From IMG/VR virus record IMGVR_UViG_3300037483_000201: 54,968 nucleotides of DNA; one strand, given 5' to 3'. Positions within the stretch are counted from its first letter, which is position 1, and the number at the start of each line of letters is the position of its first letter. This stretch comes from a virus. Positions 813 through 54,968 of the stretch are shown one piece after another. The translations under genes were made by a program, and so were the position numbers. The notes below the pieces were generated by a model. The model saw only the letters and a list, made by a program, of their open reading frames with translations. It was not told the origin of the DNA and made no database searches.

Positions 813-1312
813 TCTCTGAACTCCGTTTTATCATCGTTGAAGAATTTAGTCAGCTCACCATCGGGATCATAGCTGTCATCCCCCTCTTCTTTCAGCGGCT
901 TCGGACACATGAAGAAGTACAAGCTCTTCCAGACCTTCCACTTGGTATGTTGATAAGCGAACGCCAGCAACCATTTAATGATTTCATACGCTATCGGAGT
1001 CCCAACCATACAGATAAACGCACCACCGATTATCCCGGAGTAATTATCAACGCCAGCCCCGGCCCATGTACTACCGGCGCCAATAATAGCCGATACGATC
1101 ATTGCTGTGATAAAGATCCAGCGTTTCGTGAAATACCACAGCGCGCGGATCGCCCTGACAATGACGATACTTCCGGCGATCGCAAACATTCCAGAAGGGC
1201 CAAGCATATCGAGGATCTCATTACCTCTGTCCTGTACGATCTGCTGTGCGTCCATGGCATAGGCAGTGGTGATTAACATCATGGTACTGATCAATACAGT
1301 TAATATTTTCAT
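809..1312 (-). CDS. multi-pass membrane protein (167 aa), holin candidate
   Basis: N-terminal MKILTVLISTMMLITTAYA is followed by three further hydrophobic stretches (FAIAGSIVIV, WIFITAMIVSAIIGAG, IIGGAFICMVG). It lies in the lysis cassette. Confidence 0.6.
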   Translation of the reverse strand: MKILTVLISTMMLITTAYAMDAQQIVQDRGNEILDMLGPSGMFAIAGSIVIVRAIRALWYFTKRWIFITAMIVSAIIGAGSTWAGAGVDNYSGIIGGAFICMVGTPIAYEIIKWLLAFAYQHTKWKVWKSLYFFMCPKPLKEEGDDSYDPDGELTKFFNDDKTEFRE

Positions 1313-6708: not shown

Positions 6709-7418
6709 GCCATCGGTCCCGCGATCTGAATCGGCGGCAGCTGGTTTAATTCCAGATCCTGCCATAGTTGGGCGGCGGCCATCTTGGCCTGTGCCAGGAC
6801 CTCGGGCTTGTTGTTCAGTGTCGCATTGCGTTTCACCGCTTCCCACAGGATCAGATCGTGAAACATGGACGGCATATCCGGCAGGTCGTCGTCCGCCGCC
6901 AGTACTTGAGGTCCGCGCTGGTAGTCCCCGGAGATAACATAGGTGTCGTCGGGCTTGGGCCCCAGTACGATGTTGTTCTGCGGATCGACCGTGATAAAAG
7001 CCGGGTAACCATTGGTTTGCGCCCCGATCCGGTAAATACGTTTGAAGTGGTTCCAGTCCAGGTATGTCAACCAGCCCTCCGCATCAGATCCTGAGGACGA
7101 TAGATATATCTTAGGGTAATCATCGGGATCGTGCAGTAGCCACTGCGAAAACCGGGTGATCGCGCCGGCGGTGATGTCATCGGTACAGTCCCCGTAGGCA
7201 TAGCTGTCGTCTCCAGAGGAAGTGGTGAGCGTGAAACCCACCCGCATCCAGCGCCAATTGGGATGCTTCATCTGCACCTTATTCCATGACTGGATCACAT
7301 GATTAACGATCTGATCCAGCACTCCGGTCTGACCACTAACAGAGGCAGGCACGGTATCCCCACCAGCGATCCGGCACTCGCGGCTGACGCCCTGGCAGAT
7401 CTGAAGAAACGTGCTCAT
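6705..7418 (-). CDS. tail structural protein (adaptor / tail-tubular-A-like position)
   Basis: 237 aa, directly upstream of the large tail protein. Function is inferred from synteny only. Confidence 0.5.
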   Translation of the reverse strand: MSTFLQICQGVSRECRIAGGDTVPASVSGQTGVLDQIVNHVIQSWNKVQMKHPNWRWMRVGFTLTTSSGDDSYAYGDCTDDITAGAITRFSQWLLHDPDDYPKIYLSSSGSDAEGWLTYLDWNHFKRIYRIGAQTNGYPAFITVDPQNNIVLGPKPDDTYVISGDYQRGPQVLAADDDLPDMPSMFHDLILWEAVKRNATLNNKPEVLAQAKMAAAQLWQDLELNQLPPIQIAGPMA

Positions 7419-7707: not shown

Positions 7708-8109
7708 TTAAATCTGCCTCGGTGTCTGCCCGGCCCGCCGGTGGATTTCTCTCGGGACAGTCGGACGGGTGCGGCTGATTACATTACCCTCTTCATCTAT
7801 TTCGATTTCATCCGGCATGATTTTGAGGTACAAGTCCACATTAAACGCGGTTACCAGATTGCCGCTATCAAAATCCCACGCACCAATCAACTGCCAATCG
7901 ATGTCTGAAAACAGCTGCGTATCCCCCATGGAACCAATCAGCATGTCATACGCAATATGTACTTCCCCATTGATGACGGGCTGGCGGTAGACCACATCCA
8001 CTCGTTGAGCGATAGCCTGTTGCTGCCCGGGTGTAAGTGTCCCCGCTTCCAGCTTTTCTCGAAGCGTTTCCACGGTGGATAAAGGGGCCAGTACAATTAA
8101 ATTAATCAT
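7708..8109 (-). CDS. hypothetical virion-module protein (133 aa)
   Basis: Tightly packed ORF whose start overlaps the upstream stop. Confidence 0.6.
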   Translation of the reverse strand: MINLIVLAPLSTVETLREKLEAGTLTPGQQQAIAQRVDVVYRQPVINGEVHIAYDMLIGSMGDTQLFSDIDWQLIGAWDFDSGNLVTAFNVDLYLKIMPDEIEIDEEGNVISRTRPTVPREIHRRAGQTPRQI

Positions 8110-9293
8110 GTGCTCAGTGCTTGTAGTTGGGCGTCAGAGAGGCGAACGGGGTAATAGGTAATATCCTCTATCCACAATCTAGCGTAGTCAGTGTTTACCC
8201 GACTCCTGCCAATCACTAAACTTACTAAGTCACTTGGCATTGTCCCGCTGGTATCTGTTAATACAGCTGCGCCGTTAACAGACAATCCGAAATCATTCGC
8301 TTTAACTCCAAGCGCGACAGCAAATTTACCAGCAGAAAGGGCTGACGTGGTGAGTTGTGCTTGCGATACATTCCCAGCAATAACTCGTGCTCTTACTGTT
8401 TCGTTTGACAAGATTAGAATATCTATATTTTCCGTTCCATCAGCGGCAGCATTCTTGAACGTAAGAAGTGACCTGTTGACCCCCGCCAATTCAAATGTTC
8501 CCTTAAATACAATCGTGGATTCTGCCGGGTTATAAAATGGTATGCTTGTAAGGTCTATATCATCCCCCTCCCGCGTTACCGCAGTTGCGCCGGTTTCAAT
8601 GGGGACGACAAGACCGGCAGCGGTGTTGAGGTAGATACCGGGGAAGTCTTGTATAATTGTACCGCTTCCACCATCCACATCCGTTTTTAGTGTCAGGGTT
8701 GTATTCCCCGTGGTGTTATTCGCGGCAGCCAGTGTTAACCCCCACCAATCGCCTAAATCAGTGACGACTATATCATCTGCAACCGCGTCATCGCCTTCCG
8801 TAGCAATCCCGGTACTGGTGTCAAGTGTGGCTGTATAAGTCAGACCCGTACCGCCAGTGTAAGTAAGGCTTAACACAGCGGAATCATCGCCTTTCCCAAT
8901 CAGCCAAAAGCCAACATTCGTCAGGCTGTTATTCGTAACGGTAATCGACTGACTGGCATCATCTGTATCCGTGAGCGTCCATGCGGTATTGGCTACACCA
9001 TCCACCCCCACCGCGTCTTTTGTAGCCCCGTTATTTGTCCATGTCGCGGCAAGATTACGATTCTGTAATAGACTATTCGTCACCTGAGGCCAGACCTGTG
9101 TGCCGCGTATAATGCCTGTCGCGGGGTCGTAGCCTACTACAGGGGTGTTGGCTGCGTATTCTTTCAGCAGGCCGTCACTGCCCCAGTCCCAAGCAAGAGA
9201 AGCGCGGGCGACAGTGCCGAGTGATAGTTGGCCGTTACCGATAGCGATCACTTTTGAATCGGCTGGTGCGTACCGCCGTAAGTGACTGCGCAT
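8106..9293 (-). CDS. receptor-binding / fibre-like protein with C-terminal LamG (concanavalin-like) domain
   Basis: The C-terminal ~170 aa (SLLTFKNAAADG..FAVALGVKANDFGLSVNGAAV..LVIGRS..ITYYPVRLSDAQLQAL) has the LamG jelly-roll pattern. The N-terminal part is beta-rich. Confidence 0.6.
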   Translation of the reverse strand: MRSHLRRYAPADSKVIAIGNGQLSLGTVARASLAWDWGSDGLLKEYAANTPVVGYDPATGIIRGTQVWPQVTNSLLQNRNLAATWTNNGATKDAVGVDGVANTAWTLTDTDDASQSITVTNNSLTNVGFWLIGKGDDSAVLSLTYTGGTGLTYTATLDTSTGIATEGDDAVADDIVVTDLGDWWGLTLAAANNTTGNTTLTLKTDVDGGSGTIIQDFPGIYLNTAAGLVVPIETGATAVTREGDDIDLTSIPFYNPAESTIVFKGTFELAGVNRSLLTFKNAAADGTENIDILILSNETVRARVIAGNVSQAQLTTSALSAGKFAVALGVKANDFGLSVNGAAVLTDTSGTMPSDLVSLVIGRSRVNTDYARLWIEDITYYPVRLSDAQLQALST

Positions 9294-17963: not shown

Positions 17964-19676
17964 TCACATAACTCCAGGGACGGCTTGCGCCCAGGGCTCG
18001 GTTCGGGGGAGGGGTTTGCTCGGTTTTTTACTCTTAGCAACTGCGGTGACGCTGTACGCCATCACCACGACATCAGCGAGGTTGGTAGATTCAACCCCCC
18101 TCCGTCGCATACTGTCTTTCGACTCAACTTTAATCTTGCCGTTGTCCGTATAGATCCGTTTTGGCCGGGACAGCTCGGATTGCAATTCCGTGATGTTTTT
18201 GCATCGTGAATCTATACTGATCAGATGATCCGGATCGACGTTCAGGACTCGTGCGCCATTCTGTACCTGTTGTATTGCGTGATACGTGGCCTCGAACCGA
18301 TCTCTCAGATAAGACCAGGTTTGTGCCCTGAAATTAACGTAGGTGTCGCGGTTGGTCTTTTCCGTCGATCCCCATGATTCCAGCGACATATCCCCCTCCC
18401 GGTAGGCTTTTTGGATCGTTTGCCGCTTCCTGGCCGGGAGATCGGGGTCCACCACGCCGGCGCTGCCGTGATATCCGACGACCTCCATCCGCCCTACAGA
18501 GAGCCTCTGGAGAGACAATTTCATTGCGGGCGTGCCCATACCGTCTGCGTCGAAAATGAATTTATCGGCCCGGAACTCATCCGCTATATCCACCGCCCAG
18601 GGGATAGCCTGAGTGATATCGCCGTCCCGCTTCTCCCGGGCCTCTTTAATGATCGAGCCGTACCGGTTGGCCACGGCCCGCGCATCACCGGTGTCTGCGG
18701 GGTCAAACGCTGTCACTCGCACTCCCTCCGCGCCGAACCCCAGCGTCACATGTGCATCAATCGCGGCCGACACCCATGGAGCTGGGATAAAAGAGTCCTC
18801 CTGGCTGGCGTTGTAGTCCCGGTCGATCTCCTGTGCCACCGTGACGGCATCATGCTCGGAGATCTGCCTGGCGTACCACGATTGATCCTTGCGTGGATCG
18901 TCGCGCCAATCAAAGATGAACAATTTATCCGTTTTATCCATTCGCATGCGTTTTTTGTAAAACGCATTACCGGTGCCATTGGGAGTCCCCACGTCGATCT
19001 GACAGTTAGTGGTCGCTGATAACGCCCGGTCCACCAGCCCCTGCCGCTCGATTTTTGCCGCCTCGTCCACGATATAGATGGATTTACGCCCACCTCTACC
19101 GATCTCATCGCCGGCCTCCCCGGTGATGGTAGAGCCTATTTCGGGGTTGACGCAGCGCATATACGTCAGGTGTTTTTTGGGGTCGAACCCCTCGGGTAAT
19201 AAAATGGAGGGGAGTGACAGCGTAAAATACCGGATTTTCTCGAAAATCGAATCCAGATCTCCGAGATGATCGACCAGCTGTTCTTTGCGCGAGCCAATCC
19301 CCATCGAAAAACCAGGCTGAAACAGCCATTCACACACGCCAAACCCAACAAACAGCCAGGTTACCCCACAATCCCGGGATTTCTCGCAGAGTCCCCGCTC
19401 CCCTGACTGCCAGCGGGAATATAACCACTGCACGTACTCAATCTGCCTCGGCCACAGGACAAACGGCACATCCGCAGACAGCCCGCGCTCGATATTCCGG
19501 GGGTCCACCGTCATCCCCCAATCGGAAATAAAATCCCAGGGGTGAGCGGTATAGTAGGTACGGAGCATCGCCAGGGCCTGCTCTTTGTTATCCCGGATCT
19601 GATCTGCGAGCCAGGCGATCTTATGCCGCCGGGACTCGTATATATCCGTGTAATCGGGGTGCTGGTAGTCAATCAT
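17964..19676 (-). CDS. terL: terminase large subunit
   Basis: 570 aa. Contains DWGMTVDPRN..LWPRQIEYVQWL, the Walker-A-like CEKSRDCGVTW, IYIVDEAA (Walker B) and a C-terminal nuclease-type region. Confidence 0.85.
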   Translation of the reverse strand: MIDYQHPDYTDIYESRRHKIAWLADQIRDNKEQALAMLRTYYTAHPWDFISDWGMTVDPRNIERGLSADVPFVLWPRQIEYVQWLYSRWQSGERGLCEKSRDCGVTWLFVGFGVCEWLFQPGFSMGIGSRKEQLVDHLGDLDSIFEKIRYFTLSLPSILLPEGFDPKKHLTYMRCVNPEIGSTITGEAGDEIGRGGRKSIYIVDEAAKIERQGLVDRALSATTNCQIDVGTPNGTGNAFYKKRMRMDKTDKLFIFDWRDDPRKDQSWYARQISEHDAVTVAQEIDRDYNASQEDSFIPAPWVSAAIDAHVTLGFGAEGVRVTAFDPADTGDARAVANRYGSIIKEAREKRDGDITQAIPWAVDIADEFRADKFIFDADGMGTPAMKLSLQRLSVGRMEVVGYHGSAGVVDPDLPARKRQTIQKAYREGDMSLESWGSTEKTNRDTYVNFRAQTWSYLRDRFEATYHAIQQVQNGARVLNVDPDHLISIDSRCKNITELQSELSRPKRIYTDNGKIKVESKDSMRRRGVESTNLADVVVMAYSVTAVAKSKKPSKPLPRTEPWAQAVPGVM

Positions 19677-19690
19677 GACGACTCCGGCGC

Positions 19691-20398
19691 TTACTCATAT
19701 TTGCCCTTGCACATCTCTCGGTAAAACCGGGCCGCGTCCTCGGGAGCCACGCCGACGAACGTGATACTGCGGGCGTCAATATTACCAGTTGGGGCAACCT
19801 GACCGGCCTGCGGGTATAGTTTGAGATGTTTCATTGCCTTCTCTAGTGCGGAATTTTTATCACAGTGTTTGATTTTTTTTACATGCCCCACAACACCGCC
19901 ACGTCTACGCATCAGCGCCCCACCATGGCTTTGTGGCTCCATATCCCCATCATCAGAGGAGGCAGCACATATTTCCACCACCTCGAAACCAGCGATTGCC
20001 GCAGAGGTATCATCATCCATTTCATGGATGGGTTTCAGGTTACCACCCTCATCAAACAGATCGCGTGGGTCGAAAAATGCCAGTCTAGCCACCTCGCGTA
20101 ATGTGCGCTCTACAGTCAGCCCTGTATTTTCAGACGCTATACGCAGAACCTCCGCGCTCCGATCCGCTATATACCGCGCCACGTCAACGTTTTTCAGCAG
20201 CCTCTGCCCCTGTGAACCTGCGGTTTTTGCACTAAATCCAGCAGTTATTGCCGCCTGCGTCGCATTCCCACCGTTCGTAATATAGCTCTCACAAAACAGT
20301 TGCCGTCTCTGTTCAACTGATTGTTTTGTTGACCCTCCTGCCCTGGGTGATTTCTGTATTTGTTTTCTTGTCACTGTTTTATTTGCCCGTATTGCCAT
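19691..20398 (-). CDS. terS: terminase small subunit (Terminase_2-like)
   Basis: FCESYITNGGNATQAAITAGFSAKTAGSQGQRLLKNVDVARYI matches the classic small-terminase HTH pattern. The gene is directly upstream of TerL. Confidence 0.8.
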   Translation of the reverse strand: MAIRANKTVTRKQIQKSPRAGGSTKQSVEQRRQLFCESYITNGGNATQAAITAGFSAKTAGSQGQRLLKNVDVARYIADRSAEVLRIASENTGLTVERTLREVARLAFFDPRDLFDEGGNLKPIHEMDDDTSAAIAGFEVVEICAASSDDGDMEPQSHGGALMRRRGGVVGHVKKIKHCDKNSALEKAMKHLKLYPQAGQVAPTGNIDARSITFVGVAPEDAARFYREMCKGKYE

Positions 20399-20445
20399 GC
20401 TTTGCTGTAGGTAACCGCGACACCGGGTTTATCGGCTTACTATAT

Positions 20446-20469
20446 GTTGTATGCGGTCTTGAATACAAC
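20446..20469 (-). promoter_or_regulatory. 7-bp-stem hairpin in the TerS leader
   Basis: gttgtat-N10-atacaac, flanked by direct ctatat repeats, inside the 123-nt gap between the HicB-like stop and the TerS start. Confidence 0.3.
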
Positions 20470-20521
20470 CGCTATATGTAGCGTAGTAAACCACGCTTGC
20501 CGCTGTACGATTTTTACGCAT

Positions 20522-20773
20522 TTAAGCCTGTACGGTATCAACTATACCCGTAAAATCGCTTAAATCGAATCTGGTGCCGTCGCGCTGTGCTGATATAGTC
20601 TCAAAAAACAGTTGGATGGCCTCCTTGAGATTAGCTGTTGCCTCGGCCTCGCCCCGGCCTTGGCTGTGCACGTCCAGGACTTTGCACGAGCTGTACACCC
20701 AGCCGCCGCTCTGAGTGAGCGTGATAGGCACAGTGATAGTGCCGGCAGGCAGGGTGATCTCGATTATCATCAA
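20522..20773 (-). CDS. HicB-like (UPF0150-type) antitoxin-fold protein, no HicA partner seen
   Basis: 83 aa. VLDVHSQGRGEAEATANLKEAIQLFFE resembles the HicB N-domain signature (..GcxsqGxTxeEAlxnxkEAixlxxE). Confidence 0.5.
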   Translation of the reverse strand: MMIIEITLPAGTITVPITLTQSGGWVYSSCKVLDVHSQGRGEAEATANLKEAIQLFFETISAQRDGTRFDLSDFTGIVDTVQA

Positions 20774-20830
20774 TCAATATCCGTTGTCGTCACGATAAAA
20801 AACTTTTGTTGAAATAATTGCATTATTATC

Positions 20831-20858
20831 TTGCATTGCTGTACCTATCTGCTATTAT
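20831..20858 (+). promoter_or_regulatory. sigma70-type promoter for the 20898-23951 early operon
   Basis: TTGCAT (20831-36), a 16-nt spacer, then TATTAT (20853-58), in an AT-rich divergent intergenic region about 40 nt before the first ATG. Confidence 0.5.
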
Positions 20859-20897
20859 TACATCATAGATGTATGTTTTTAACCGTAGGAGAGAGAA

Positions 20898-21167
20898 ATG
20901 CAAATCATTACATCCAAAGACCATTGGACACCAGTAACGGTTTCTATGTCCGCCAGGATATGGGATAACAAAATATGGAAAAAGGAAACCGGTCCCCAGT
21001 ACTTCGGCGGCTATCATATTAAATATGCGAGCCTTAACAGTCGTATAGGCCGCGAATGGCTGATTAGTTTTGGGCATTATAATTCCTGCTGTAATCAGGA
21101 AGTTGTTGATATTGTCGATCCTATCGGGGATCTGCGTCGCAATGGTCTACTGACAATCAATAAGTAA
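20898..21167 (+). CDS. hypothetical early protein (89 aa)
   Basis: AGGAGAGAGA RBS upstream. First gene of the plus-strand block. Confidence 0.6.
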   Translation: MQIITSKDHWTPVTVSMSARIWDNKIWKKETGPQYFGGYHIKYASLNSRIGREWLISFGHYNSCCNQEVVDIVDPIGDLRRNGLLTINK

Positions 21168-21208
21168 TTTTCAATTCACAATACCCGGATAACCGGGGAG
21201 GAGAGAAA

Positions 21209-21424
21209 ATGAGCACAATAGCACAAAGCATCAAAGTATTTTATACGACAATTGAGCGCAGCACCGGAGCAGAAACTTATGATATTACCGGGATGCTCAC
21301 GGAAGCGGAGCAAAAAGGTGAAGCAACCCAAGACTGGGACAACGAGCAAACCGAATTTGATTTCCCGGACGGCTCCGTTTTGATTGTCGGCACAGACTAC
21401 GCAACCGCGTACGGATCACGATAA
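21209..21424 (+). CDS. hypothetical early protein (71 aa, acidic)
   Basis: GGGGAGGAGAGA RBS upstream. Confidence 0.6.
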   Translation: MSTIAQSIKVFYTTIERSTGAETYDITGMLTEAEQKGEATQDWDNEQTEFDFPDGSVLIVGTDYATAYGSR

Positions 21425-21532
21425 CCACCCCAGGCCAAGGATGGCCGGTATGCCCGCTCTAGAGTCGGCATACCCGGAATGGCTGACCGTATCAGCTCAC
21501 AATCCCGGTTATCCGGGAAGGAGAAAAAGACG

Positions 21533-21970
21533 ATGAAACCGACTACATTTAACCCCGATAAATTCATGATTGATGCCGCAACAGATGACCTGCAACAATT
21601 CATGCCGGACTGGCAGCTCGCTACATTACGAGATTTAGCCACGAACAGCGAAGAAAAGGAGTTTTTCATCGTGCGCATGGTTGAGCTGGCTGCTGAAATC
21701 CTGTCCATGCCGAAAACCTACGAGCAGGACGGTAAAGGCGATCAGGCCGTGGCCTACCTACACTATTTCAACACGTCGATGGACTGGTATATCACTGAGA
21801 AGGACACGGAGTCAGATCAGCTACAGGCGTTCGGTTATGCTGATCTGGGTCACGGTTGCCCGGAACTCGGGTATATCTCAATCCAAGAGCTGATAGATAA
21901 CAGTGTTGAGCTGGATCTATATTTTCGGCCGGCCACGATTGAATCAATAAAATTACAGAAAGCGGCTTAA
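21533..21970 (+). CDS. DUF2958-like protein
   Basis: ORF 21479..21970 trimmed to ATG 21533 (GGAAGGAGAAAA upstream). AYLHYFNTSMDWYITEKD..AFGYADLG..ELGYISIQEL..VELDLYFRP matches the DUF2958 pattern known from plasmid and ICE leading regions. Confidence 0.6.
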   Translation: MKPTTFNPDKFMIDAATDDLQQFMPDWQLATLRDLATNSEEKEFFIVRMVELAAEILSMPKTYEQDGKGDQAVAYLHYFNTSMDWYITEKDTESDQLQAFGYADLGHGCPELGYISIQELIDNSVELDLYFRPATIESIKLQKAA

Positions 21971-21994
21971 CAAATCATCAGAGGAGAGAGAAAA

Positions 21995-22423
21995 ATGACC
22001 ACACAAACAAAAATGTTAATAGGCTATGATGCCTATGATTATGTATCTGAGGTATCAGAGACACCCCCACGGGGTTACCCGCCGGTGTCTAGCCTAACAG
22101 AGGCCAAGGTTTTGGGTTACAAAGTTGTACGGCAAACAGTAAGGGACTGTTTGCGCCCTGATGACTCAATTGCTCACCCAGGCGACGCCGGGTATTACGA
22201 GGCACAAATGGGGCGTCTTGGTGTAGCCCCCATGCCGGCAGGCTGGAAATTTGTTGAGCGAGTAAGCAATGTCCTTCTGTGCCTCGTAGATGGTAACCCG
22301 ATTGCCCTTGAGAGTGCCGCAAGACACAACTATCCACGGGCATTAGCCACATCACCGATAGTGCTTAATCTGGGTGAGATCGTGTTAGATGGCCCGATTG
22401 TGGAGGCGCATAATGCAAACTAA
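21995..22423 (+). CDS. hypothetical early protein (142 aa)
   Basis: GAGGAGAGAGA RBS upstream. Confidence 0.6.
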   Translation: MTTQTKMLIGYDAYDYVSEVSETPPRGYPPVSSLTEAKVLGYKVVRQTVRDCLRPDDSIAHPGDAGYYEAQMGRLGVAPMPAGWKFVERVSNVLLCLVDGNPIALESAARHNYPRALATSPIVLNLGEIVLDGPIVEAHNAN

Positions 22424-22592
22424 TCACACACAAATCCGCGGCTCAGCCCGCACTATCGATCATATCGAGCGGTATGCCTGGCTGTACCGGCTACCCTATG
22501 ATCGCTCTGTAAAAATAATCCGGTTCCGCGAGCTGCCAGTCCGGCATCTGAACGCGATCCGGGGGATACTCACAACACAGGAGGCATCATGA
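22413..22592 (+). CDS. hypothetical early protein (59 aa)
   Basis: ORF 22389..22592 trimmed to ATG 22413, with GGAGG 6 nt upstream. Confidence 0.5.
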   Translation: MQTNHTQIRGSARTIDHIERYAWLYRLPYDRSVKIIRFRELPVRHLNAIRGILTTQEAS

Positions 22593-23314
22593 AACTAACA
22601 GCGAAAAAGCTAATCGAGGCCGGATGTTGTAAAGCCGGTGTTAAGAAATATTTTGCAGATCAAAACCGCACGGTCTGGGATGCTGAAAAGCTTTTCAGCC
22701 ACGCCCTGGCCTGCCAAAATTTTGATGATGCGCGCTACGGGCTGGTCCACATGATGACACACTCGCAGCACGTCGCCTGGGCGGTGCACTGTGCGGAGCA
22801 GGTCCTGCATATCTACGAGGCAAAATACCCACAGGATACCAGGCCACGGGCAGCCATCCAGGCCGCCAATATTTGGCTGAAAAATCCAAGCAAAGAGGCG
22901 GCTTATGCGGCTCATGCGGCTCATGCGGCGGCTGATGCAGCGGCTCTTGCGGCTCATGCGGCGGCTGATGCGGCTGATGCGGCGGCTTATGCGGCTGATG
23001 CAGCGGCTGCGGCGGCTCATGCGGCTTATGTGGCGGCTGATGCGGCTTATGTGGCGGCTGATGCGGCTCATGCGGCGGCTTATGCGGCTGATGCAGCGGC
23101 TGATGCGGCTCATGCGGCGGCTGATGCGGCTTATGCGGCGGCTGATGCGGCTGATGCAGCGGCTGCGGCGGCTCATGCGGCTTATGTGGCGGCTGATGCG
23201 GCTTATGTGGCGGCTGATGCGGCTCATGCGGCGGCTTATGCGGCGGCTCATGCGGCTTATGTGGCGGCTTATGAAAAATTGCTCAGGCGCGGGCTGGAAA
23301 TCATACTGACATGA
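22589..23314 (+). CDS. alanine-rich helical-repeat protein (Imm5-like N-terminal region by recollection)
   Basis: 241 aa. The N-terminal ~100 aa (VAWAVHCAEQVLHIYE..DTRPRAAIQAANIWL) is followed by ~125 aa of AA[DHY]AA(A)[DHYL] repeats. Confidence 0.7.
   Translation: MKLTAKKLIEAGCCKAGVKKYFADQNRTVWDAEKLFSHALACQNFDDARYGLVHMMTHSQHVAWAVHCAEQVLHIYEAKYPQDTRPRAAIQAANIWLKNPSKEAAYAAHAAHAAADAAALAAHAAADAADAAAYAADAAAAAAHAAYVAADAAYVAADAAHAAAYAADAAADAAHAAADAAYAAADAADAAAAAAHAAYVAADAAYVAADAAHAAAYAAAHAAYVAAYEKLLRRGLEIILT
22898..23271 (+). repeat. GCN-rich coding tandem repeat with a 156-bp higher-order duplication
   Basis: gcggct(cat/gat/tat)gcg units. The block starting gcggctgatgcagcggctgcgg occurs at 22991 and again at 23147. 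Confidence 0.8.
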
Positions 23315-23565
23315 TGAATAATAATCTCGAAAAATTAACCGCGCTCATGTCAGCGCACAAACTCAAGCGCCGGGATGTCGCGGTGCTGCTGTCGCGTAAA
23401 AACTGTGACAAAACAGAAGTCGATAGGCTCAAGCGCCGTGTTGATTCCTGGTTCTACCACGCCGGCAACCCAGCCAGGCGGGAGATGCCGGATCAGCTCC
23501 TGAGGCTACTGGAGCTGGAGCTGATGTATCTAAACTGCGATGTTTTTGAAAGGAGCAGGCCATGA
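23311..23565 (+). CDS. hypothetical early protein (84 aa)
   Basis: ATGA overlap with the upstream gene. Confidence 0.55.
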   Translation: MMNNNLEKLTALMSAHKLKRRDVAVLLSRKNCDKTEVDRLKRRVDSWFYHAGNPARREMPDQLLRLLELELMYLNCDVFERSRP

Positions 23566-23951
23566 TTATTTATACATGCCAAACTATCCGCACTCTCAGC
23601 GTGTATGAGGCCGTGCAAGCTGGCGAATTGTGTGGGGAACCGGTGTTTAAGGATGTATATTCGAGCGATCCGGTATTCAACTTCAGATATGTCTACGAGG
23701 ATGGCGGCTGGTCCTCCGTAGGTACGCCGCCAGATAGGCCAACCCCCATTGACCCGGCTAGAGACTCCGTGCCTCCAGAATGCGCTATGGATTGCAAATG
23801 GTGGAAAACTTTTAATTTTGACATACAGCAGAATGCTTTGCGTCTAGATGCGGCAAGTATAATAGAAATATATCGCTGTGGTTGGAACTTAAAACCGGGG
23901 GTTATTGGTGGGCATGCTCTTGATTACGCAGCCTGCACGTATCACCGATAA
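23562..23951 (+). CDS. hypothetical early protein (129 aa)
   Basis: ATGA overlap with the upstream gene. Last gene of the block. Confidence 0.55.
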   Translation: MIIYTCQTIRTLSVYEAVQAGELCGEPVFKDVYSSDPVFNFRYVYEDGGWSSVGTPPDRPTPIDPARDSVPPECAMDCKWWKTFNFDIQQNALRLDAASIIEIYRCGWNLKPGVIGGHALDYAACTYHR

Positions 23952-23960
23952 CACAGGATT

Positions 23961-24003
23961 AAAAAAGCCCCGGCCTGAATTTGGGAGGAGAGAGGCCGGG
24001 GTT
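23961..24003 (-). terminator. intrinsic terminator T2 (minus strand; possibly weakly bidirectional)
   Basis: The minus-sense RNA is CCCCGGCC-(18-nt loop UCUCUCCUCCCAAAUUCA)-GGCCGGGG followed by CUUUUUU. Confidence 0.7.
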
Positions 24004-24108
24004 GTACAACACATTAAAAATCCATAATTTGGTAGCAGGGCCGCGAGTCGCACGCGGATCTGGTGCTTATGAGACACCTGAGATACTATTTCTCCACCCT
24101 GCGTCATT

Positions 24109-24158
24109 AAAAAGCCCCGGCCTGTCGAGGATTTGGGAGGAGAGAGAAGGCCGGGGCT
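24109..24158 (-). terminator. intrinsic terminator T1 (minus strand)
   Basis: Perfect 11-bp stem AGCCCCGGCCU/AGGCCGGGGCU, a 24-nt CU-rich loop, then UUUUUAAU in the minus sense. It lies about 100 nt after the RfaH-like stop. Confidence 0.75.
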
Positions 24159-24184
24159 GTACAACAAAAAGGGTTTGAAATTGA

Positions 24185-24196
24185 GTGGCTACCGCC
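24185..24196 (-). promoter_or_regulatory. ops-like element (candidate loading site for the phage RfaH/NusG paralog)
   Basis: The minus-sense sequence GGCGGTAGCCAC matches the first 9 nt of E. coli ops GGCGGTAGCGTG. It lies between the RfaH-like gene stop (24260) and terminator T1. Confidence 0.4.
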
Positions 24197-24259
24197 CGTA
24201 CCGCTTGTCAAGCACGGCCACTCGCTCATATGTAAAACTAGGCTATACATCGTTATTTG

Positions 24260-24742
24260 TCAAGCGGATTCGACCTGCCTGTAAGATAAAATCATTTTTA
24301 TTTCCCGGCCCATCCCCGACAGCAAAACAGCCAGCCGGTCCCGTGGTTTTGCTGTGATCACGGCCTCGTAAAATTTGAACGGGCCATCAAGCACCCGCAC
24401 CCGATCCCCCGGCTCGTAATCCATGCCGGGGATCTCGTGGATGCCCTCGGCGCTCTCTTGTTGCTGTAAATGCTCAATCACGTCATCCGCGATCTGCGCT
24501 GGGTCCTGCCCGAACCGGATGATTTTAAGCAGGCCTTTGGTCGAGCGGATCGGCGTCCAGTCGTCATCACTGCCCATTCCCAAAAAAATATACCCCGGAA
24601 ATAACGGGAGCAACTCCCTGGTCTGCTGCTTTTTGACGTGCCGCCAGGTCAGCGGTAAATACGTGTCGATCCCCTGCTGATTGAGATTTCTTTCCGCAAT
24701 CCGCTCGGCCCCGGATTTCGTCATGGCTACGTGCCAGATCAT
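24260..24742 (-). CDS. RfaH/NusG-family transcription antiterminator paralog
   Basis: 160 aa. Contains W-HVAMTKSGAERIAERNL..QGI, LPLFPGYIFL, IRSTKGLLKIIRFG (NGN domain) and PGDRVRVLDGPFKFYEAVI (KOW). It is collinear with E. coli RfaH. Confidence 0.8.
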   Translation of the reverse strand: MIWHVAMTKSGAERIAERNLNQQGIDTYLPLTWRHVKKQQTRELLPLFPGYIFLGMGSDDDWTPIRSTKGLLKIIRFGQDPAQIADDVIEHLQQQESAEGIHEIPGMDYEPGDRVRVLDGPFKFYEAVITAKPRDRLAVLLSGMGREIKMILSYRQVESA

Positions 24743-27156: not shown

Positions 27157-27295
27157 CCGATTTCAGGAAGCTCCGTACTGTCATACACCTGTCCGCGTGC
27201 AGCTGGCTGATGTCCCGGTGCTTCGGTGATCGCCATCGGGCCTGCTCGGATTGCGCCCACTCTGCCAAGTATTGATCAAGTAGATTTGTTGTCAA
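27116..27295 (-). CDS. 59-aa ORF, one codon below the ORF-track cutoff
   Basis: Hand translation gives MTTNLLDQYLAEWAQSEQARWRSPKHRDISQLHADRCMTVRSFLKSDAGQRYIESITEP. The TTG start overlaps the upstream TGA (TTGA). It fills an otherwise 136-nt gap. Confidence 0.4.
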   Translation of the reverse strand: MTTNLLDQYLAEWAQSEQARWRSPKHRDISQLHADRCMTVRSFLKSDAGQRYIESITEP

Positions 27296-27720
27296 TGTAT
27301 ACTATCTCCAGCCATCGCGGTTAAGCGTGCCTCTATCATTTCACTTAGATCCGGTTTTTCGACAACATCGGTATATAACCGTTTCAACCCACTTGCCTTG
27401 TCGTGTACCTCGTTGCGCACGGCGTGGTAATTACGTATTACTTCATCGTGTTTTCTGCGTTGCTCTGGGGTTGCGTAGTAGTAGGATATTACCAGCCTTG
27501 CCAGCCTATTAAACGCGGTCCTTTGGTTCTCAACACGACTTCTGCTTTCTGTGCCAACAGCTTTTAACCCTGTCTCAATATGGGTTATACGGCAACAATT
27601 CTGGTGTTTGTTTCTGTGTTGGCCTCCCGCGCCGCTACCGGAATACCATTCGATCCTGAAATCTTTTTTTGATAGATGTATTTCTGGTGCGCCGTGTTTG
27701 TCTGTTTTGATATCACTCAT
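27292..27720 (-). CDS. GGQ-domain peptidyl-tRNA hydrolase, ArfB / class-I release-factor-like
   Basis: 142 aa. WYSGSGAGGQHRNKHQNCCRITHIETGL..ESRSRVENQRTAFNRLARL aligns with the ArfB/RF GGQ domain (GxGGQxxNKxxxxxxxxHxxxG...RSQxxN). No codon-recognition domains are present. Confidence 0.75.
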   Translation of the reverse strand: MSDIKTDKHGAPEIHLSKKDFRIEWYSGSGAGGQHRNKHQNCCRITHIETGLKAVGTESRSRVENQRTAFNRLARLVISYYYATPEQRRKHDEVIRNYHAVRNEVHDKASGLKRLYTDVVEKPDLSEMIEARLTAMAGDSIH

Positions 27721-29902: not shown

Positions 29903-29930
29903 ATTATGGCTCATATTCAGATTTTGTCAA
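29903..29930 (-). promoter_or_regulatory. near-consensus sigma70 promoter for the replication / nin-like block
   Basis: In the minus sense: TTGACA (29925-30), a 16-nt spacer, then CATAAT (29903-08), in a 155-nt non-coding gap. Confidence 0.55.
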
Positions 29931-30687: not shown

Positions 30688-31050
30688 ATGAAACTATCGA
30701 AAAGAGCACGCCAGGGGTTGATTGATTCTATCGCCGCGTGGGAGTATAAAAAGAAGCAACTGGCGCTTAGTGATGTGCTCATAACGCCAGCCGCCTGTCC
30801 GCTGTGCAAATTATACAATAGCTATAACGAAGTTCATTGTCATCATAGCGATTGTATGCACTGCCCGATTTACAAAACCACGGGGGAAAGATATTGCATG
30901 GGCTCGCCGTATGTACAGGCATCTGAAGCCTTGGAAGTTTGGGATGATGCTTCCCTTTGGGATCATGATGAACGGCCCGCTAGAGCCAAATTCCGACGCG
31001 CCTGCACCAAGATGATTAAATTCATGCAGAATATTTTGGAGGAGAGATAA
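30688..31050 (+). CDS. Cys/His-rich early protein (120 aa)
   Basis: CPLCKLY..HCHHSDCMHCPIY..YCMG. AGGAGGA RBS upstream. Confidence 0.6.
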   Translation: MKLSKRARQGLIDSIAAWEYKKKQLALSDVLITPAACPLCKLYNSYNEVHCHHSDCMHCPIYKTTGERYCMGSPYVQASEALEVWDDASLWDHDERPARAKFRRACTKMIKFMQNILEER

Positions 31051-31475
31051 TGACACCGACAATCGAACAACTTGTACAAACACAGGTCCGGGTAGAACTT
31101 GAACAAATGGACCTAAAAGATATTATCGTAACTGAGGTGAGAAGGGCTATTTCAGAAGGAGTTGCGAAAGATATTGTTGAAAAAATCAGTTCTGTTTCGG
31201 AGTCTCTGATAACTGATGAAATTCAAAAAGTATTGGCTGGTGAGGTCAAGACAAATGACGGGTGGGGGAAAAAGGAGACCTATCCTTCTTTCGAAGATCT
31301 CTTTAAGTCGAAGCTCGGAGATAAGTTGAAAGACAGGTATGAGGTAGGAAAAATTATTGATAAAAAAGTTAACGAAAGAGTCGCGTCTTTATTTAATCAA
31401 GATTACAACAAAGTGATTGAAAAGATAGTTGATGAGATATCAAAGACAAGGCTTGTTAAAACCGGAGAGAGATAA
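31050..31475 (+). CDS. hypothetical early protein (141 aa)
   Basis: GGAGGAGAGA RBS upstream and a TAATG junction. Confidence 0.6.
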   Translation: MTPTIEQLVQTQVRVELEQMDLKDIIVTEVRRAISEGVAKDIVEKISSVSESLITDEIQKVLAGEVKTNDGWGKKETYPSFEDLFKSKLGDKLKDRYEVGKIIDKKVNERVASLFNQDYNKVIEKIVDEISKTRLVKTGER

Positions 31476-31765
31476 TGCCAGACGAAAAAGACTACAACCA
31501 GACGGTCATGGACCAGATATTCCCTGCCTCATGCGCAAAAGACGAAGAGGCGGAGGAGCGCAGAGAAAACGCGATCTGGCAGGAGCTGGCTGTTACTGAT
31601 GGACGCAGCCCGATCAGTGACCGCGTTGAGAAACGGCTGTGCGGAATCATCCAATTCACGGCCCGGAATCGTTTTGACGAATGCGAAATCGGCAGGATGC
31701 TGAAAGAGGTTGTCAGGGAAGAAGTCTACGAATCAATGATGGAGGGGGAATGGGATGATATATAA
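31475..31765 (+). CDS. hypothetical early protein (96 aa, acidic)
   Basis: GGAGAGAGA RBS upstream. Confidence 0.6.
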
Positions 31766-32573
31766 AATAACCAACACGGTAGGCAAAACACTGTTTGAGT
31801 GCGAGGCGGACAGTCTGCGTGAATGCGCGAAAGAAGCTGTTAGATCTAATGCCAATCTCAGAGGGGCCAATCTCAGTGGTGCCGATCTCAGAGGGGCCAA
31901 TCTCAGTGGTGCCTATCTCAGAGGGGCCAATCTCAGTGGTGTCGATCTCAGAGATGCCGATCTCAGAGATGCCTATCTCAGAGGGGCCAATCTCAGTGGT
32001 GCCGATCTCAGAGATGCCGATCTCAGAGGGGCCAATCTCAGAGATGCCAATCTCAGAGGGGCCAATCTCAGTGGTGCCGATCTCAGAGGGGCCAATCTCA
32101 GTGGTGCCGATCTCAGAGATGCCTATCTCAGAGGGGCCAATCTCAGAGGGGCCAATCTCAGTGGTGCCGATCTCAGAGATGCCAATCTCAGAGGGGCCAA
32201 TCTCAGAGGTGCTAAAAATGTGGACCTCATTGTAGCGCAGACTTCAATTTTACCGGAGGGCGACATCATCGGATGGAAAAAGTTGCGGGATGGGGTTATT
32301 GCAAAACTCAAGATCCCGGCTGAAGCCAGGCGCTCAAATGCTACCGGGCGTAAATGCAGGGCGGAATTCGCTGATGTGCTGGAAATAATTGGCGCGGTAA
32401 AAGGGGTTAATCGTGATGACGGGGGCACGGGTATTCGGCTCGGATATGTCGCCGGTGAGCGCGTCTATGCGTGTGATCGCGGGGGCAACCACGTATGGGA
32501 TGGAGATCGCTGGAATGAATGCAGTACGGGGATTCATTTTTTCATTACCCGCGCAGAAGCGGAAAATTATTAG
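31755..32573 (+). CDS. pentapeptide-repeat protein with a distinct C-terminal domain
   Basis: About 24 consecutive A(N/D)L(R/S)(G/D) pentapeptides ([23 protein letters not shown]..) are followed by ~115 aa ending ..[19 protein letters not shown]. Confidence 0.85.
31849..32210 (+). repeat. 15/30-bp coding tandem repeats (pentapeptide array)
   Basis: gccaatctcagaggg / gccgatctcagtggt units are repeated throughout. Confidence 0.85.
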
Positions 32574-37871: not shown

Positions 37872-37895
37872 TAGCCGCAGTCGCCCGCGCAGGTT

Positions 37896-38087
37896 ATGCC
37901 TTCTCGTGGTCGGGGTCGGGGTCGGGGTCGTGGTCGCGGTCGCGGTCGCGGTCGCGGTCGGGGTCGTGGTCGTGGTCGAGGTCGCGGTTGCGGTCGCGGT
38001 CGGGGTCGAGGTCGCGGTCGCGGTCGCGGTCGGGGTCGTGGTCGCGGTCGCGGTCGGGGTCGAGGTCGTGGTCGGGGTGAGTTATAG
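37896..38087 (+). CDS. possible 63-aa poly(Gly-Arg) protein
   Basis: Translation is MPSRGRGRG...GRGEL. It exactly fills the gap between 37871 and 38082. Unit variation is almost only at the CGN wobble base. The RBS is weak, and the minus-strand (Pro-Arg)n frame is equally synonymous. Confidence 0.35.
   Translation: MPSRGRGRGRGRGRGRGRGRGRGRGRGRGRGCGRGRGRGRGRGRGRGRGRGRGRGRGRGRGEL
37908..38078. repeat. (GGTCGN) x ~28 perfect-phase hexanucleotide tandem repeat
   Basis: ggtcgg ggtcgg ggtcgg ggtcgt ggtcgc ... There is one ggttgc variant. Confidence 0.95.
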
Positions 38088-38432
38088 ATTCCCCATAACG
38101 TAGATCCCACCCAGCCACAGAATTCTTTCAACCCACATCTGGAGCGTATTGGAGGTGCGCTCCCGACTTAATGCGCGTTCAAGATGTTGTGCCTCTTCTG
38201 CCCGGCGCTCGGCTTCCATCGTTCGATGTACCAAGACATCAACCAAGCTGTTGTTGTTTCTGGCCCTGGATTGATTCTCCAGTTCAAGCGCCTGTTTCAT
38301 TGCCGCCAGGTTATCTTTGTCCTGCTCGGATTGCTGGAAGTCATCTTCCGACATGCAGATTTTGTCCCCGCACCGCTCGACATTCAAAGCGGCTATGTGG
38401 TAGGGGAGGGTCTCCGGGATTTCGGCTTTCAA
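38082..38432 (-). CDS. signal-less paralog of the u-spanin-like gene (copy A), tail-anchored coiled-coil protein or pseudogene
   Basis: 116 aa from the TTG start. It is identical to copy B over GSVPTVEY..SEQDKDN at nt level and about 80-85 percent identical in the C-terminal half. The upstream in-frame sequence has no ATG/GTG/TTG and no lipobox. Confidence 0.5.
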   Translation of the reverse strand: MKAEIPETLPYHIAALNVERCGDKICMSEDDFQQSEQDKDNLAAMKQALELENQSRARNNNSLVDVLVHRTMEAERRAEEAQHLERALSRERTSNTLQMWVERILWLGGIYVMGNL

Positions 38433-38484
38433 TGCGGCATATTGGCTGACGACATCTCGGTATTCGACTGTAGGGACACTGCCA
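38082..38484. repeat. Direct repeat copy A
   Basis: 38311..38484 (174 nt) is identical to copy B (54868..54968 plus 55..127). The remainder is diverged. Confidence 0.85.
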
Positions 38485-54638: not shown

Positions 54639-54968
54639 TCAAATATTACCCATTATGTAAATCCCGCCCAGCCACAAGATCCTTTCAACCCACATCTGGA
54701 GCGTGTTGGAGGCGCGCTCCTGTCTTAATGCGCGCTCCAGGTGTTTCGCTTCTTCTTCCCGGCGCTCAGCTTCCATTGACCGGTGGATCAGGGCATCAAC
54801 CAGGCTGTTGTTGTTTCTGGCCCTGGATTGATTCTCGCTCTCAAGCGCCTGTTTCATTGCCGCCAGATTATCTTTGTCCTGCTCGGATTGCTGGAAGTCA
54901 TCTTCCGACATGCAGATTTTGTCCCCGCACCGCTCGACATTCAAAGCGGCTATGTGGTAGGGGAGGGT
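54639..54968 (-). CDS. u-spanin-like lipoprotein, C-terminal part (continues from 1..165 across the junction)
   Basis: The ORF-track entry 54639..54944 is the same frame. There is a coiled-coil region and the C-terminal TM MWVERILWLGGIYIMGNI. Confidence 0.6.
   Translation of the reverse strand, partial: TLPYHIAALNVERCGDKICMSEDDFQQSEQDKDNLAAMKQALESENQSRARNNNSLVDALIHRSMEAERREEEAKHLERALRQERASNTLQMWVERILWLGGIYIMGNI
54639..54968. repeat. Direct repeat copy B, first half
   Basis: Aligns with 38082..38411. 54915..54968 also duplicates window positions 1..54 (circular or terminal overlap). Confidence 0.85.

Follow-up and report, generated by a model that had tools for sequence, protein, structure and literature searches.

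A NusG/RfaH-like gene with an ops-like core in the slot of lambda Q: a candidate late-gene switch in a lambdoid phage genome and in divergent phages

Which factor switches on the late genes of a lambdoid phage that carries a paralog of NusG and RfaH in the slot of lambda Q? The question is raised by the IMG/VR virus record IMGVR_UViG_3300037483_000201 (54,968 nucleotides (nt); below, the window means this whole stretch), where the gene for a 160-amino-acid (aa) protein of the NusG/RfaH family is followed, in its own sense, by a match to the ops element of E. coli RfaH and by two terminator-like hairpins, T1 and T2, that enclose a tRNA-Met gene (Table 1). On balance we favour the view that this protein is a late antiterminator and processivity factor that replaces Q, and that it would load at the ops core and gate T1 and T2; the view rests on sequence comparison across phages. 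The window is a circular contig with an exact 54-nt terminal overlap (1-54 = 54915-54968), giving a true length of 54,914 bp, and its overall layout is lambdoid. The NusG-like gene is the last of a 5.6-kb minus-strand operon headed by the strongest sigma-70-like promoter of the region, and the genes upstream of it encode a methyltransferase, RusA, HNH, NinB, and P-like and O-like proteins; a divergent plus-strand operon encodes Erf and an exonuclease. The minus-strand operon is a PR-like early operon (replication, NinB, RusA), not the "leftward middle block" it had been called in a first interpretation made from the letters without database searches (hereafter the sequence-only reading). Because the NusG-like gene is last in this operon, behind nin-like genes, we place it in the slot of lambda Q.

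The two domains noticed at first sight, NGN and KOW, are both present. Residues 2-92 match the Pfam NusG NGN family (PF02357) at 65.6 bits (cutoff 22.2), NusG C-terminal domain (CTD)/KOW chains (2jvv, 2kvq) align with residues 105-160, and an AlphaFold2 (AF2) model built on a 51-sequence alignment (predicted local distance difference test score of 87) shows an NGN domain followed by a beta-barrel KOW domain, with five strands within residues 114-159 and no helical hairpin, although AF2 may miss fold switching and the best model alone was inspected. The modelled NGN superposes on that of RfaH with a root-mean-square deviation of 2.1-2.5 Å. In Foldseek comparisons NusG and active beta-CTD RfaH were matched over both domains, autoinhibited RfaH was matched over the NGN only, and the CTD was matched to NusG CTD structures. 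Among PDB sequences E. coli RfaH matches best (E=2.7e-13, residues 3-151), and the assigned PHROG is 6386, a "transcription antiterminator" family.

The sequence-only reading had spoken of a clear RfaH/NusG paralog. As to the family this stands, given the Pfam score and the best PDB match; the protein is not a canonical RfaH, however, since it falls below the curated cutoff of its best NCBIfam match (RfaH TIGR01955, 105.8 bits against 144.5), has changes at the counterparts of H20, R23 and E48 (Table 1), and has a CTD predicted as a beta-barrel. The cutoff of the RfaH equivalog NF006534 is likewise not reached (70.6 bits against 124), and the matches to UpxY (67.1 bits against 100) and LoaP (44.2 bits against 125) also stay below theirs, while the NusG family scores under RfaH as well. 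The C-terminus, GMGREIKMILSYRQVESA, presumably stands closer to NusG than to RfaH, judging by our own comparison of its look. Because the CTD is predicted as a beta-barrel, autoinhibition is not indicated, and we regard it as doubtful for this protein.

In E. coli, ops positions 3-8 are what RfaH recognises, forming a C3:G8 pair and a G4-A7 loop in which G5 and T6 are read; they are essential for recruitment, and the flanks that make ops a pause site are G2 and T11-G12 (PMC5995543). On the minus strand 3' of the stop codon of the NusG-like gene (...GCTTGACAAATAACGATGTATAGCCTAGTTTTACATATGAGCGAGTGGCCGTGCTTGACAAGCGGTACGGGCGGTAGCCACTCAATTTC...), the ops-like element GGCGGTAGCCAC lies 66 nt past the stop, and its GGCGGTAGC is identical to ops at positions 1-9, the recognition core C3-G8 with its pair and loop included. 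A match to the first nine ops bases in this slot and orientation was the central observation of the sequence-only reading and is borne out. The element lies in the 3' side of a leader hairpin found by minimum free energy folding, runs in the sense of both the upstream operon and the late block, and has a promoter-like site upstream of it; between the element and the late block of the window are 3 kb of genes on the opposite strand.

Within the window the match is not unique. One or two chance copies of such an 8-mer had been anticipated, and 1.4 are indeed expected for GGCGGTAG, but the genome-wide count gave 5, a number reached in 1 of 100 shuffles. The 9-mer is repeated at 51878-51886 inside a Gly-rich late gene, the 11-mer GGGCGGTAGCC also recurs in a Gly-rich late gene, and GGTAG is over-represented overall (85 against 63 expected); the site at 24185-24196 is the sole intergenic copy. 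A single ops match is weak on its own and the evidence from the window is modest, and the significance of the site comes from other phages. A second ops-like site was sought ahead of the late block (20400-20900, minus strand), where only GCGGTTACC and AGGTAC near-matches were found, neither of them convincing.

To place the site in a wider context, a profile of 51 homologs was used to retrieve NusG-like genes on at least 148 IMG/VR contigs, of which 80 were analysed, with matches extended to the stop codon and flanks scanned. All counts refer to 75 non-redundant IMG/VR loci from which the window is excluded, to the motif CGGTA[AG]C, and to a zone from -20 to +150 of the stop. In this zone the motif occurred on the sense strand of 10 loci against 1.24 expected (binomial P=4.7e-7), and on the antisense strand of 1. 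The proteins encoded at the motif-positive loci share only 21-42% mutual identity, so these loci represent independent lineages. The bases conserved across the phage sites (Table 1) are ops positions 3-9, while the flanks (G2, T11-G12) vary. In most of these loci terminase genes lie behind the motif on the same strand, with the small terminase gene (terS) ~180 nt past the stop in L131 and the large terminase gene (terL) within 0.5-3.4 kb in L141, L156, L169, L173 and L155. Presence of the motif is further tied to a K/H10-Q24-T72 residue pattern in the protein (7 of 16 loci with the pattern against 3 of 59 others, Fisher P=5e-4), a signature picked post hoc, though from known contact residues; several motif-"negative" loci with this pattern have near-variants or a site further downstream. 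RNA hairpins occur in most loci, and in several relatives they reach up to the motif or stop shortly ahead of it; the z-scores, however, are mostly non-significant (unremarkable save in L155), and we do not claim an upstream hairpin as a shared pause-stabilising feature.

Because divergent NusG-like genes have the core behind them in this very slot and orientation, and because it stands ahead of terminase genes, the ops-like site of the window is very probably functional. DNA reading is likely to have been retained by the 160-aa protein, since the ops core is conserved and since N20, the residue that it has in place of H20, is the commonest one in the motif-positive phage proteins. These observations point to an undescribed and widespread late-gene switch, in which an ops core and a NusG paralog stand ahead of the packaging genes of many unrelated phages. 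A cis-linked pair also exists in a bacterium, at one of the motif-"negative" loci that have the residue pattern: Marinobacter sp. SS21 (NZ_JAQNDA010000002.1) has a chromosomal rfaH (8001-8486) with all canonical contact and autoinhibition residues, and a perfect GGCGGTAGCGTG 283 nt downstream on the same strand.

The elements around the site were compared with those of known lambdoid phages. The TGA stop of the NusG-like gene lies inside a perfect -35 hexamer, TTGACA, of a PR'-like promoter candidate whose predicted start is at ~24228. Between this -35 and the presumed -10 a spacer motif at 24248-24256(-), (A/T)A(C/T)GATG(T/C)A, is also seen in L131, with ATGCAACAAA in a 3.8-kb relative (L002, below) and in Pseudomonas phage D3. 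In lambda PR', the Q-binding element sits at the equivalent place in the spacer.

T1 and T2 are near-identical direct repeats with U-tracts on the minus-sense side, and their hairpin pattern is found nowhere else in the window. The T1 loop is long and pyrimidine-rich with CUCUCCUCCC, and the T2 loop is likewise rich in it; at 19-24 and 16 nt both far exceed the short loops (about 3-8 nt) of textbook intrinsic terminators. A consensus terminator scan left the full hairpins unreported and gave only a 5-bp inner alternative for T1. Such long loops may fold slowly into hairpins and may thus make termination sensitive to a factor that suppresses pausing at the U-tract. Neither genome nor metagenome contigs contained the pattern of stem, loop motif and stem, and the hairpin is thus not a repeat derived from the host; with a 17-mer taken from beside the terminator, viral and genome contigs gave chance matches only, and the leader/terminator/tRNA region showed no similarity in E. 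coli genomes.

The sequence-only reading had described two tandem terminators. Two near-identical units of hairpin and U-tract are confirmed, yet they are not simply tandem, for the tRNA-Met gene is located exactly between them. It starts 5 nt past the T1 U-tract and, read from the sequence, has no promoter of its own. Its acceptor stem has a C1xU72 mismatch, G2:C71, C3:G70 and A73, and A11:U24 is also present; we take the acceptor features to be initiator-type formylation determinants, going by tRNA identity rules. The anticodon stem lacks the three G:C pairs, whereas the D3 homolog keeps GGG:CCC, and the T-loop is atypical (UGCGACU). The molecule could be a degenerate initiator, or a repurposed elongator or Ile2-type tRNA.

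In a sensitive DNA search with the leader/terminator/tRNA region, only the tRNA-Met region of D3 and its relatives was matched. The D3 neighbourhood reads HNH, NinB, NinG, orf83, orf84, tRNA-Met, further tRNAs, holins and lysis genes. As in the window, TTGACA contains the stop codon of D3 orf84; ~95 nt past it stands a terminator that shares its 3' arm and tail, GCCGGGGCUUUUU, with T1 letter for letter, and 6 nt behind this terminator lies a tRNA-Met with a 5' half almost the same as in the window. Leader lengths are ~95-130 nt across the window and D3, with tRNA-Met 5-6 nt past the terminator in both. We also considered whether orf84 might be a hidden NusG paralog, and this was ruled out: it has no similarity to the 160-aa protein and belongs to PHROG 3412, of unknown function. 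GGTAG is absent from the D3 leader, and relative to it the leader of the window has an extra ~60-nt segment that carries the hairpin and the ops-like element. Judged by these correspondences, the promoter/terminator/tRNA scaffold is homologous between the window and D3. Since the shared scaffold has the ops core only where a NusG paralog occupies the slot, T1 would be the analogue of tR' and the ops-like site the loading site, and the D3 comparison seems to us the best single argument for both assignments.

Close relatives are scarce. Megablast revealed no close DNA relative among isolated phages, and neither did single-protein scans of IMG/VR and of metagenome contigs; in the protein collection only a 1.5-kb contig (L001, 96% aa identity) and the 3.8-kb contig L002 (49%) were found. 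L001 is co-linear with the window up to T2 and unrelated beyond it, making T2 the exact boundary of a conserved module. It has one substitution in T1 (C>U), which turns a G:C into a G.U pair in the minus sense only; both this substitution and the T2 boundary fit an RNA function in the minus sense. In L002 the NusG-like gene is followed by GGTAG at +55, a tRNA, a long-loop terminator (CCCCCGG...CCGGGGG hairpin, 13-nt C/U-rich loop, U6) and then an endolysin gene, and the -35 over the stop codon is present as TTGAAT. The L002 tRNA (1216-1289(+), Rfam 51 bits), between the NusG-like and lysis genes, has the anticodon UUA, of ochre suppressor type, so that one may ask whether late genes of that phage undergo recoding or suppression of stop codons. 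An isolated phage, Sinorhizobium phage phi3LM21, has a gene annotated "transcription antitermination protein NusG", ~100 nt later GGCGGTAACCGG, and behind it an intrinsic terminator, one open reading frame (ORF), terS and terL. The order of factor gene, ops-like site, terminator and late genes is therefore recurrent.

The late block of the window consists of co-directional minus-strand genes that run from ~20770 to the window start and, across the circle, on to 38618, in the order HicB-like ORF, terS, terL, portal and major capsid protein. Its ~37 kb and its 3725-aa ORF (an ~11-kb gene) confirm the long late block with an 11-kb gene of the sequence-only reading. Between T2 and the late block lies an island of opposite-strand ORFs, which has a positive GC skew and encodes small soluble proteins. 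It had been taken for a plus-strand early block; we regard it as an accessory island, as nothing marks its genes as early. It was also considered as an inverted lysis cassette, which was ruled out because it has no holin or endolysin signatures.

A course of events can be proposed from what the sequences show: the family of the protein, the elements and their order, the scaffold homology with D3, the repeated presence of the ops core behind phage NusG-like genes and, in relatives, the late genes that follow it. We infer that the factor binds the site, that T1 and T2 are read through and, with the greatest reserve, that polymerase passes antisense into the late operon. The PR-like early operon would yield the factor last. 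RNA polymerase would initiate at the PR'-like promoter over the stop codon, or arrive from upstream, and ~35-45 nt into the leader CGGTAGC would be exposed on the non-template strand, where the NGN domain would read the small DNA hairpin as RfaH does and lock onto the polymerase. Unmodified polymerase would halt at T1, giving a ~120-nt leader RNA like lambda 6S RNA, or at T2, while modified polymerase would pass both long-loop terminators, transcribe tRNA-Met and go on. It would next cross the 3-kb opposite-strand island and enter the ~37-kb late operon, where the factor may exclude host NusG and Rho and couple ribosomes, aiding expression of the 11-kb gene.

Several observations weigh against this proposal. 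At the site itself ops positions 10-12 are CAC, so that the pause dinucleotide T11-G12 is replaced by A-C. In the protein, two of the four ops-contacting side chains (H20, R23) are changed and one (R73 to K) is conservatively replaced; E48 has given way to L, and the predicted form of the CTD is a beta-barrel. In the survey, 65 of the 75 phage NusG-like loci lack the motif (~13% are positive). The -10 of the PR'-like promoter, TAGTTT, is weak, and because it fits only 3 of 6 consensus positions a consensus scan does not include this promoter. Both the 3-kb opposite-strand island and the promoter-like site at 20854-20882 separate T2 from the late genes. No inspected relative has such an island in that place, and L001 diverges right past T2; the L001 tail beyond T2 was compared with the start of the late block, which might have shown the island to be an insertion, and no match was found. 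E. coli RfaH has a minor effect on intrinsic terminators in vivo (PMC7593976), and for this reason two strong GC hairpins may resist a NusG-type factor alone. Finally, a 2026 preprint describes monomorphic beta-RfaH homologs that lack some ops-binding residues, are ops-independent and adjoin their target operons (PMC13015549); this cuts both ways, for it fits the cis location of the phage gene and yet predicts ops independence.

The island bears most directly on the last step. We lean against antisense readthrough across it into the late operon, judging this step from the gene arrangement, while still counting it among the serious possibilities. Lambdoid late operons that read through opposite-strand accessory genes are not unheard of, and a NusG-excluding factor is what would keep Rho off 3 kb of untranslated antisense RNA. 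The further idea that "early" genes are silenced by convergent transcription is speculation, because nothing marks the island genes as early.

The island also speaks for the rival that best survives, in which T1 and T2 are the true ends of the early operon and of a tRNA unit, the late operon is served by its own promoter at ~20854-20882, and the factor acts in trans as an anti-Rho or processivity factor, with the ops-like site at most gating tRNA-Met. An extended -10 promoter-like site does stand directly upstream of the late block, T2 does bound the module conserved with L001, and the predicted beta-barrel CTD would suggest recruitment without ops. The weakness of RfaH as an antiterminator at intrinsic sites points the same way, as does the tRNA gene that begins 5 nt past the T1 U-tract with no promoter of its own. 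We nevertheless find this account doubtful. In relatives the ops-like site directly heads terminase or lysis genes that share its strand; an ungated constitutive sigma-70 promoter would leave the late genes unregulated; and no ops-like core is present at 20400-20900 on the minus strand.

A second account concerns the RNAs and is compatible with the other readings: short RNAs ending at T1 or T2 may be riboregulators whose CUCUCCUCCC loops pair with the Shine-Dalgarno (SD) sequences of plus-strand genes and repress them. The loops (24131-24146 and 23979-23994) pair perfectly over 10-11 nt with the SD GGGAGGAGAG of ORF 21209-21424 (21196-21205, with A21206 as the eleventh), and with one mismatch to the ribosome-binding site (RBS) of ORF 31050-31475 (31037-31046, +); the loop motif is kept in T1, T2 and L001, although the 3' part of the loop varies. 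There is also a weak hairpin resemblance to the anti-SD sRNAs ar14 and ErsA, at 18 bits well under gathering, but such Rfam scores are chance-level. Any C/U-rich loop pairs with strong SD sequences, and by our own rough estimate the probability that chance alone extends the pairing past GGAGG at one of ~80 RBSs is 0.04. A riboregulator role is therefore possible but near chance level, and we think it rather improbable.

Less probable still is that the factor is a constitutively active, sequence-independent competitor of NusG that shields phage transcription from NusG and Rho, with GGCGGTAGC as a chance match or relic. The five copies of the 8-mer in the window and the recurrence of GGGCGGTAGCC in a Gly-rich gene would be expected on these terms, as would the incomplete set of ops-contact residues, the predicted beta-barrel CTD and the motif-free majority of surveyed loci. 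What such a competitor does not account for is the position- and strand-specific enrichment over divergent loci (P=4.7e-7), the association of the motif with RfaH-like DNA-contact residues, and the fact that the conserved part of the sites is exactly the core that RfaH reads. That the site recruits host RfaH instead of, or besides, the phage protein is highly improbable: 9 of 12 ops positions match the enterobacterial consensus with all RfaH-contacted bases included, and Marinobacter does have its chromosomal rfaH-ops pair, but the motif goes together with a phage NusG-like gene and with its residue pattern, the D3 scaffold without such a gene has no motif, the leader/terminator/tRNA region has no match in E. 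coli genomes, and the site lacks the pause TG, on which E. coli RfaH depends in vivo.

A Q-replacing factor loaded at the ops core thus remains the reading that we favour. Taken in its fullest form, it would combine a widespread class of NusG-paralog/ops-core late switches, non-autoinhibited, reading non-template-strand DNA and repeatedly replacing Q on one PR'-tR' scaffold, with shutdown of the island by collision, a Rho-proof 37-kb operon and terminator loops acting as anti-SD riboregulators of early genes; that all of these hold together here is unlikely.

How does such a switch compare with known systems? With E. coli RfaH/ops it shares the two-domain NGN+KOW architecture and the size of RfaH, which is its best PDB and NCBIfam match; K10, Q24, T72, I93 and R138 are retained and R73 has become K; and ops 1-9 are identical, in what would be the non-template strand of a leader that precedes a very long operon and its giant gene. 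It differs in that the protein scores below the equivalog cutoff, has N, Q and L for H20, R23 and E48 and a CTD predicted as a beta-barrel, and that the pause TG is absent. In addition, the gene of the phage factor is encoded in cis directly upstream of its site, and the factor would need to pass two intrinsic terminators, a task at which RfaH is poor.

The layout itself is that of the lambdoid Q/PR'/tR' systems (lambda, 82, 21, Stx phages and D3): a gene at the end of a nin-like region with a promoter-like site next to it, a short leader to a terminator, tRNA gene(s) behind and late genes beyond, with the -35, the terminator arm and tRNA-Met homologous to D3. Here, however, the protein has a NusG fold and is not of the Q family, and a presumed RfaH-type non-template element ~35-45 nt into the leader would take the part of the Q-binding element in the promoter and the sigma-dependent pause. 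The terminator is duplicated around the tRNA, and an inverted 3-kb island precedes the late genes.

To our knowledge, none of ActX/PrfaH (plasmid tra operons), Bacteroides UpxY, Myxococcus TaA, Bacillus LoaP and Serratia AnfA1 (antifeeding prophage) is a late-gene switch of a tailed phage. All of them resemble the present case in having a resident NusG paralog at the start of, or beside, the very long mobile operon that it presumably serves (PMC7593976, PMC6391919). LoaP is also alike in promoting readthrough of intrinsic terminators, but the phage protein is far under the NCBIfam cutoffs of both UpxY and LoaP, which use RNA or leader determinants and not an ops-type DNA core. The monomorphic beta-RfaH homologs share with it the predicted beta-barrel CTD, the loss of E48 and of some ops-binding residues, and a gene near the putative target operon, but they are reported to be ops-independent, whereas the phage lineages conserve the ops core beside the gene (PMC13015549). 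That rfaH-like genes occur on plasmids and prophages has been remarked in passing (PMC7593976), and an RfaH-like activator beside the Serratia antifeeding prophage appears, by way of citation, in the literature. PHROGs and GenBank label such phage proteins as antiterminators. A literature search of incomplete coverage returned no description of an ops core conserved beside phage NusG paralogs, of its terminase-proximal placement, or of a replacement of Q on a D3-type scaffold.

Table 1. Elements of the locus and its surroundings in the window, counterparts of E. coli RfaH residues in the 160-aa protein, and ops-like sites behind NusG-like genes of other phages.
Feature	Coordinates	Strand	Details
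NusG/RfaH-family specialised paralog, 160 aa	24260-24742	-	last gene of PR-like early operon, slot of lambda Q
PR'-like promoter candidate	24235-24263	-	-35 TTGACA 24258-24263, 17-bp spacer, -10 TAGTTT 24235-24240; read from sequence
Leader hairpin GAGUGGC...GCCACUC	24183-24223	-	minimum free energy fold; 3' side holds ops-like element
ops-like element GGCGGTAGCCAC	24185-24196	-	ops positions 1-9 identical, including C3-G8 core
T1 terminator-like hairpin	24109-24158	-	11-13 bp GC stem, 19-24 nt loop, U5; -25.3 kcal/mol, z=-4.0
tRNA-Met (CAU)	24030-24103	-	ARAGORN; Rfam RF00005 46.6 bits vs gathering 29, E=1.3e-9 (100-nt search)
T2 terminator-like hairpin	23961-24003	-	9-bp stem, 16-nt loop, U6; -18.6 kcal/mol, z=-2.6
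Opposite-strand island, 8 small ORFs of unknown function	20898-23951	+	DUF2958, Imm5-like Ala-rich repeat protein; between T2 and late operon
sigma-70 promoter-like site	20854-20882	-	TTAAAA-17-TGtAATAAT, extended -10; directly upstream of late block
Head of late block	17964-20770	-	HicB-like ORF 20525-20770; small terminase 19691-20398; large terminase 17964-19676
Strongest sigma-70-like promoter of region	29903-29930	-	TTGACA-16-CATAAT, 11/12 consensus match; promoter scan
ops-contact residues (E. coli RfaH to 160-aa protein)			K10 to K9, retained; H20 to N19; R23 to Q22; R73 to K69
Further residues (E. coli RfaH to 160-aa protein)			Q24 to Q23, retained; T72 to T68, retained
Autoinhibition residues (E. 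coli RfaH to 160-aa protein)			E48 (salt bridge) to L; I93 to I; F130 to I; R138 to R
L131 site			GGCGGTAGCGTC, +36 from stop
L141 site			perfect 12/12 ops GGCGGTAGCGTG, overlapping stop codon
L155 site			TGCGGTAGCGTC
L156 site			TGCGGTAGCCAC
L157 site			CCCGGTAGCCTC
L169 site			TGCGGTAGCTAT
L172 site			GCCGGTAGCTCC
L173 site			AGCGGTAGCATT
L191 site			AGCGGTAACGCA
L193 site			ACCGGTAGCGCG

Further features of the window were seen along the way. In the early operon, the gene at 27292-27720(-) has an RF-1 domain (peptide chain release factor/ArfB-like), which together with the unusual tRNA-Met hints at phage manipulation of translation. The first late ORF, 20525-20770(-), resembles a HicB-type antitoxin (weak PHROG match, E=0.006), with no obvious HicA partner adjoining it. 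A holin/endolysin cassette was not found at the usual place behind the antiterminator gene in the window, where the sole lysis-related match is an amidase domain within a 731-aa late protein (4651-6846(-)). A direct repeat of ~450 nt (38088-38484, and 54645-54968 running into 1-127; 89-100% identical, with a 127-nt exact stretch) flanks a 16.5-kb segment with the 3725-aa gene and its neighbours, and its copies hold paralogous small ORFs on the minus strand (38082-38432 and 54639-54944); the giant-gene module could be lost or gained by way of this repeat, unless the repeat itself stems from the assembly. Coding tandem repeats occur at 22834-23301 (9+12-nt units that give an AADAAHAAAY-type repeat in ORF 22589-23314), at 31789-32283 (15-nt units in ORF 31755-32573, whose PHROG matches are all families of unknown function) and at 37872-38099 (~35 GGTCGN hexamers).

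Textbooks use RfaH/ops to illustrate how a transcription factor can read a DNA hairpin exposed on the polymerase surface during elongation, and the pair has so far been a matter of chromosomal and plasmid operons. The claim made here is open to direct test, since one 160-aa protein and a short template that joins promoter, ops core, T1, tRNA and T2 would suffice. If true, it would provide a second, Q-independent answer to the timing of phage late genes, would improve the annotation of genes now labelled just "NusG" or "antiterminator", and would give insight into how phages secure the transcription and translation of giant genes. Whether DNA reading or autoinhibition came first in the evolution of RfaH is debated, and phage paralogs that read the same core with no pause flank and no autoinhibition would, if they are what they appear to be, represent natural intermediates on that evolutionary path.

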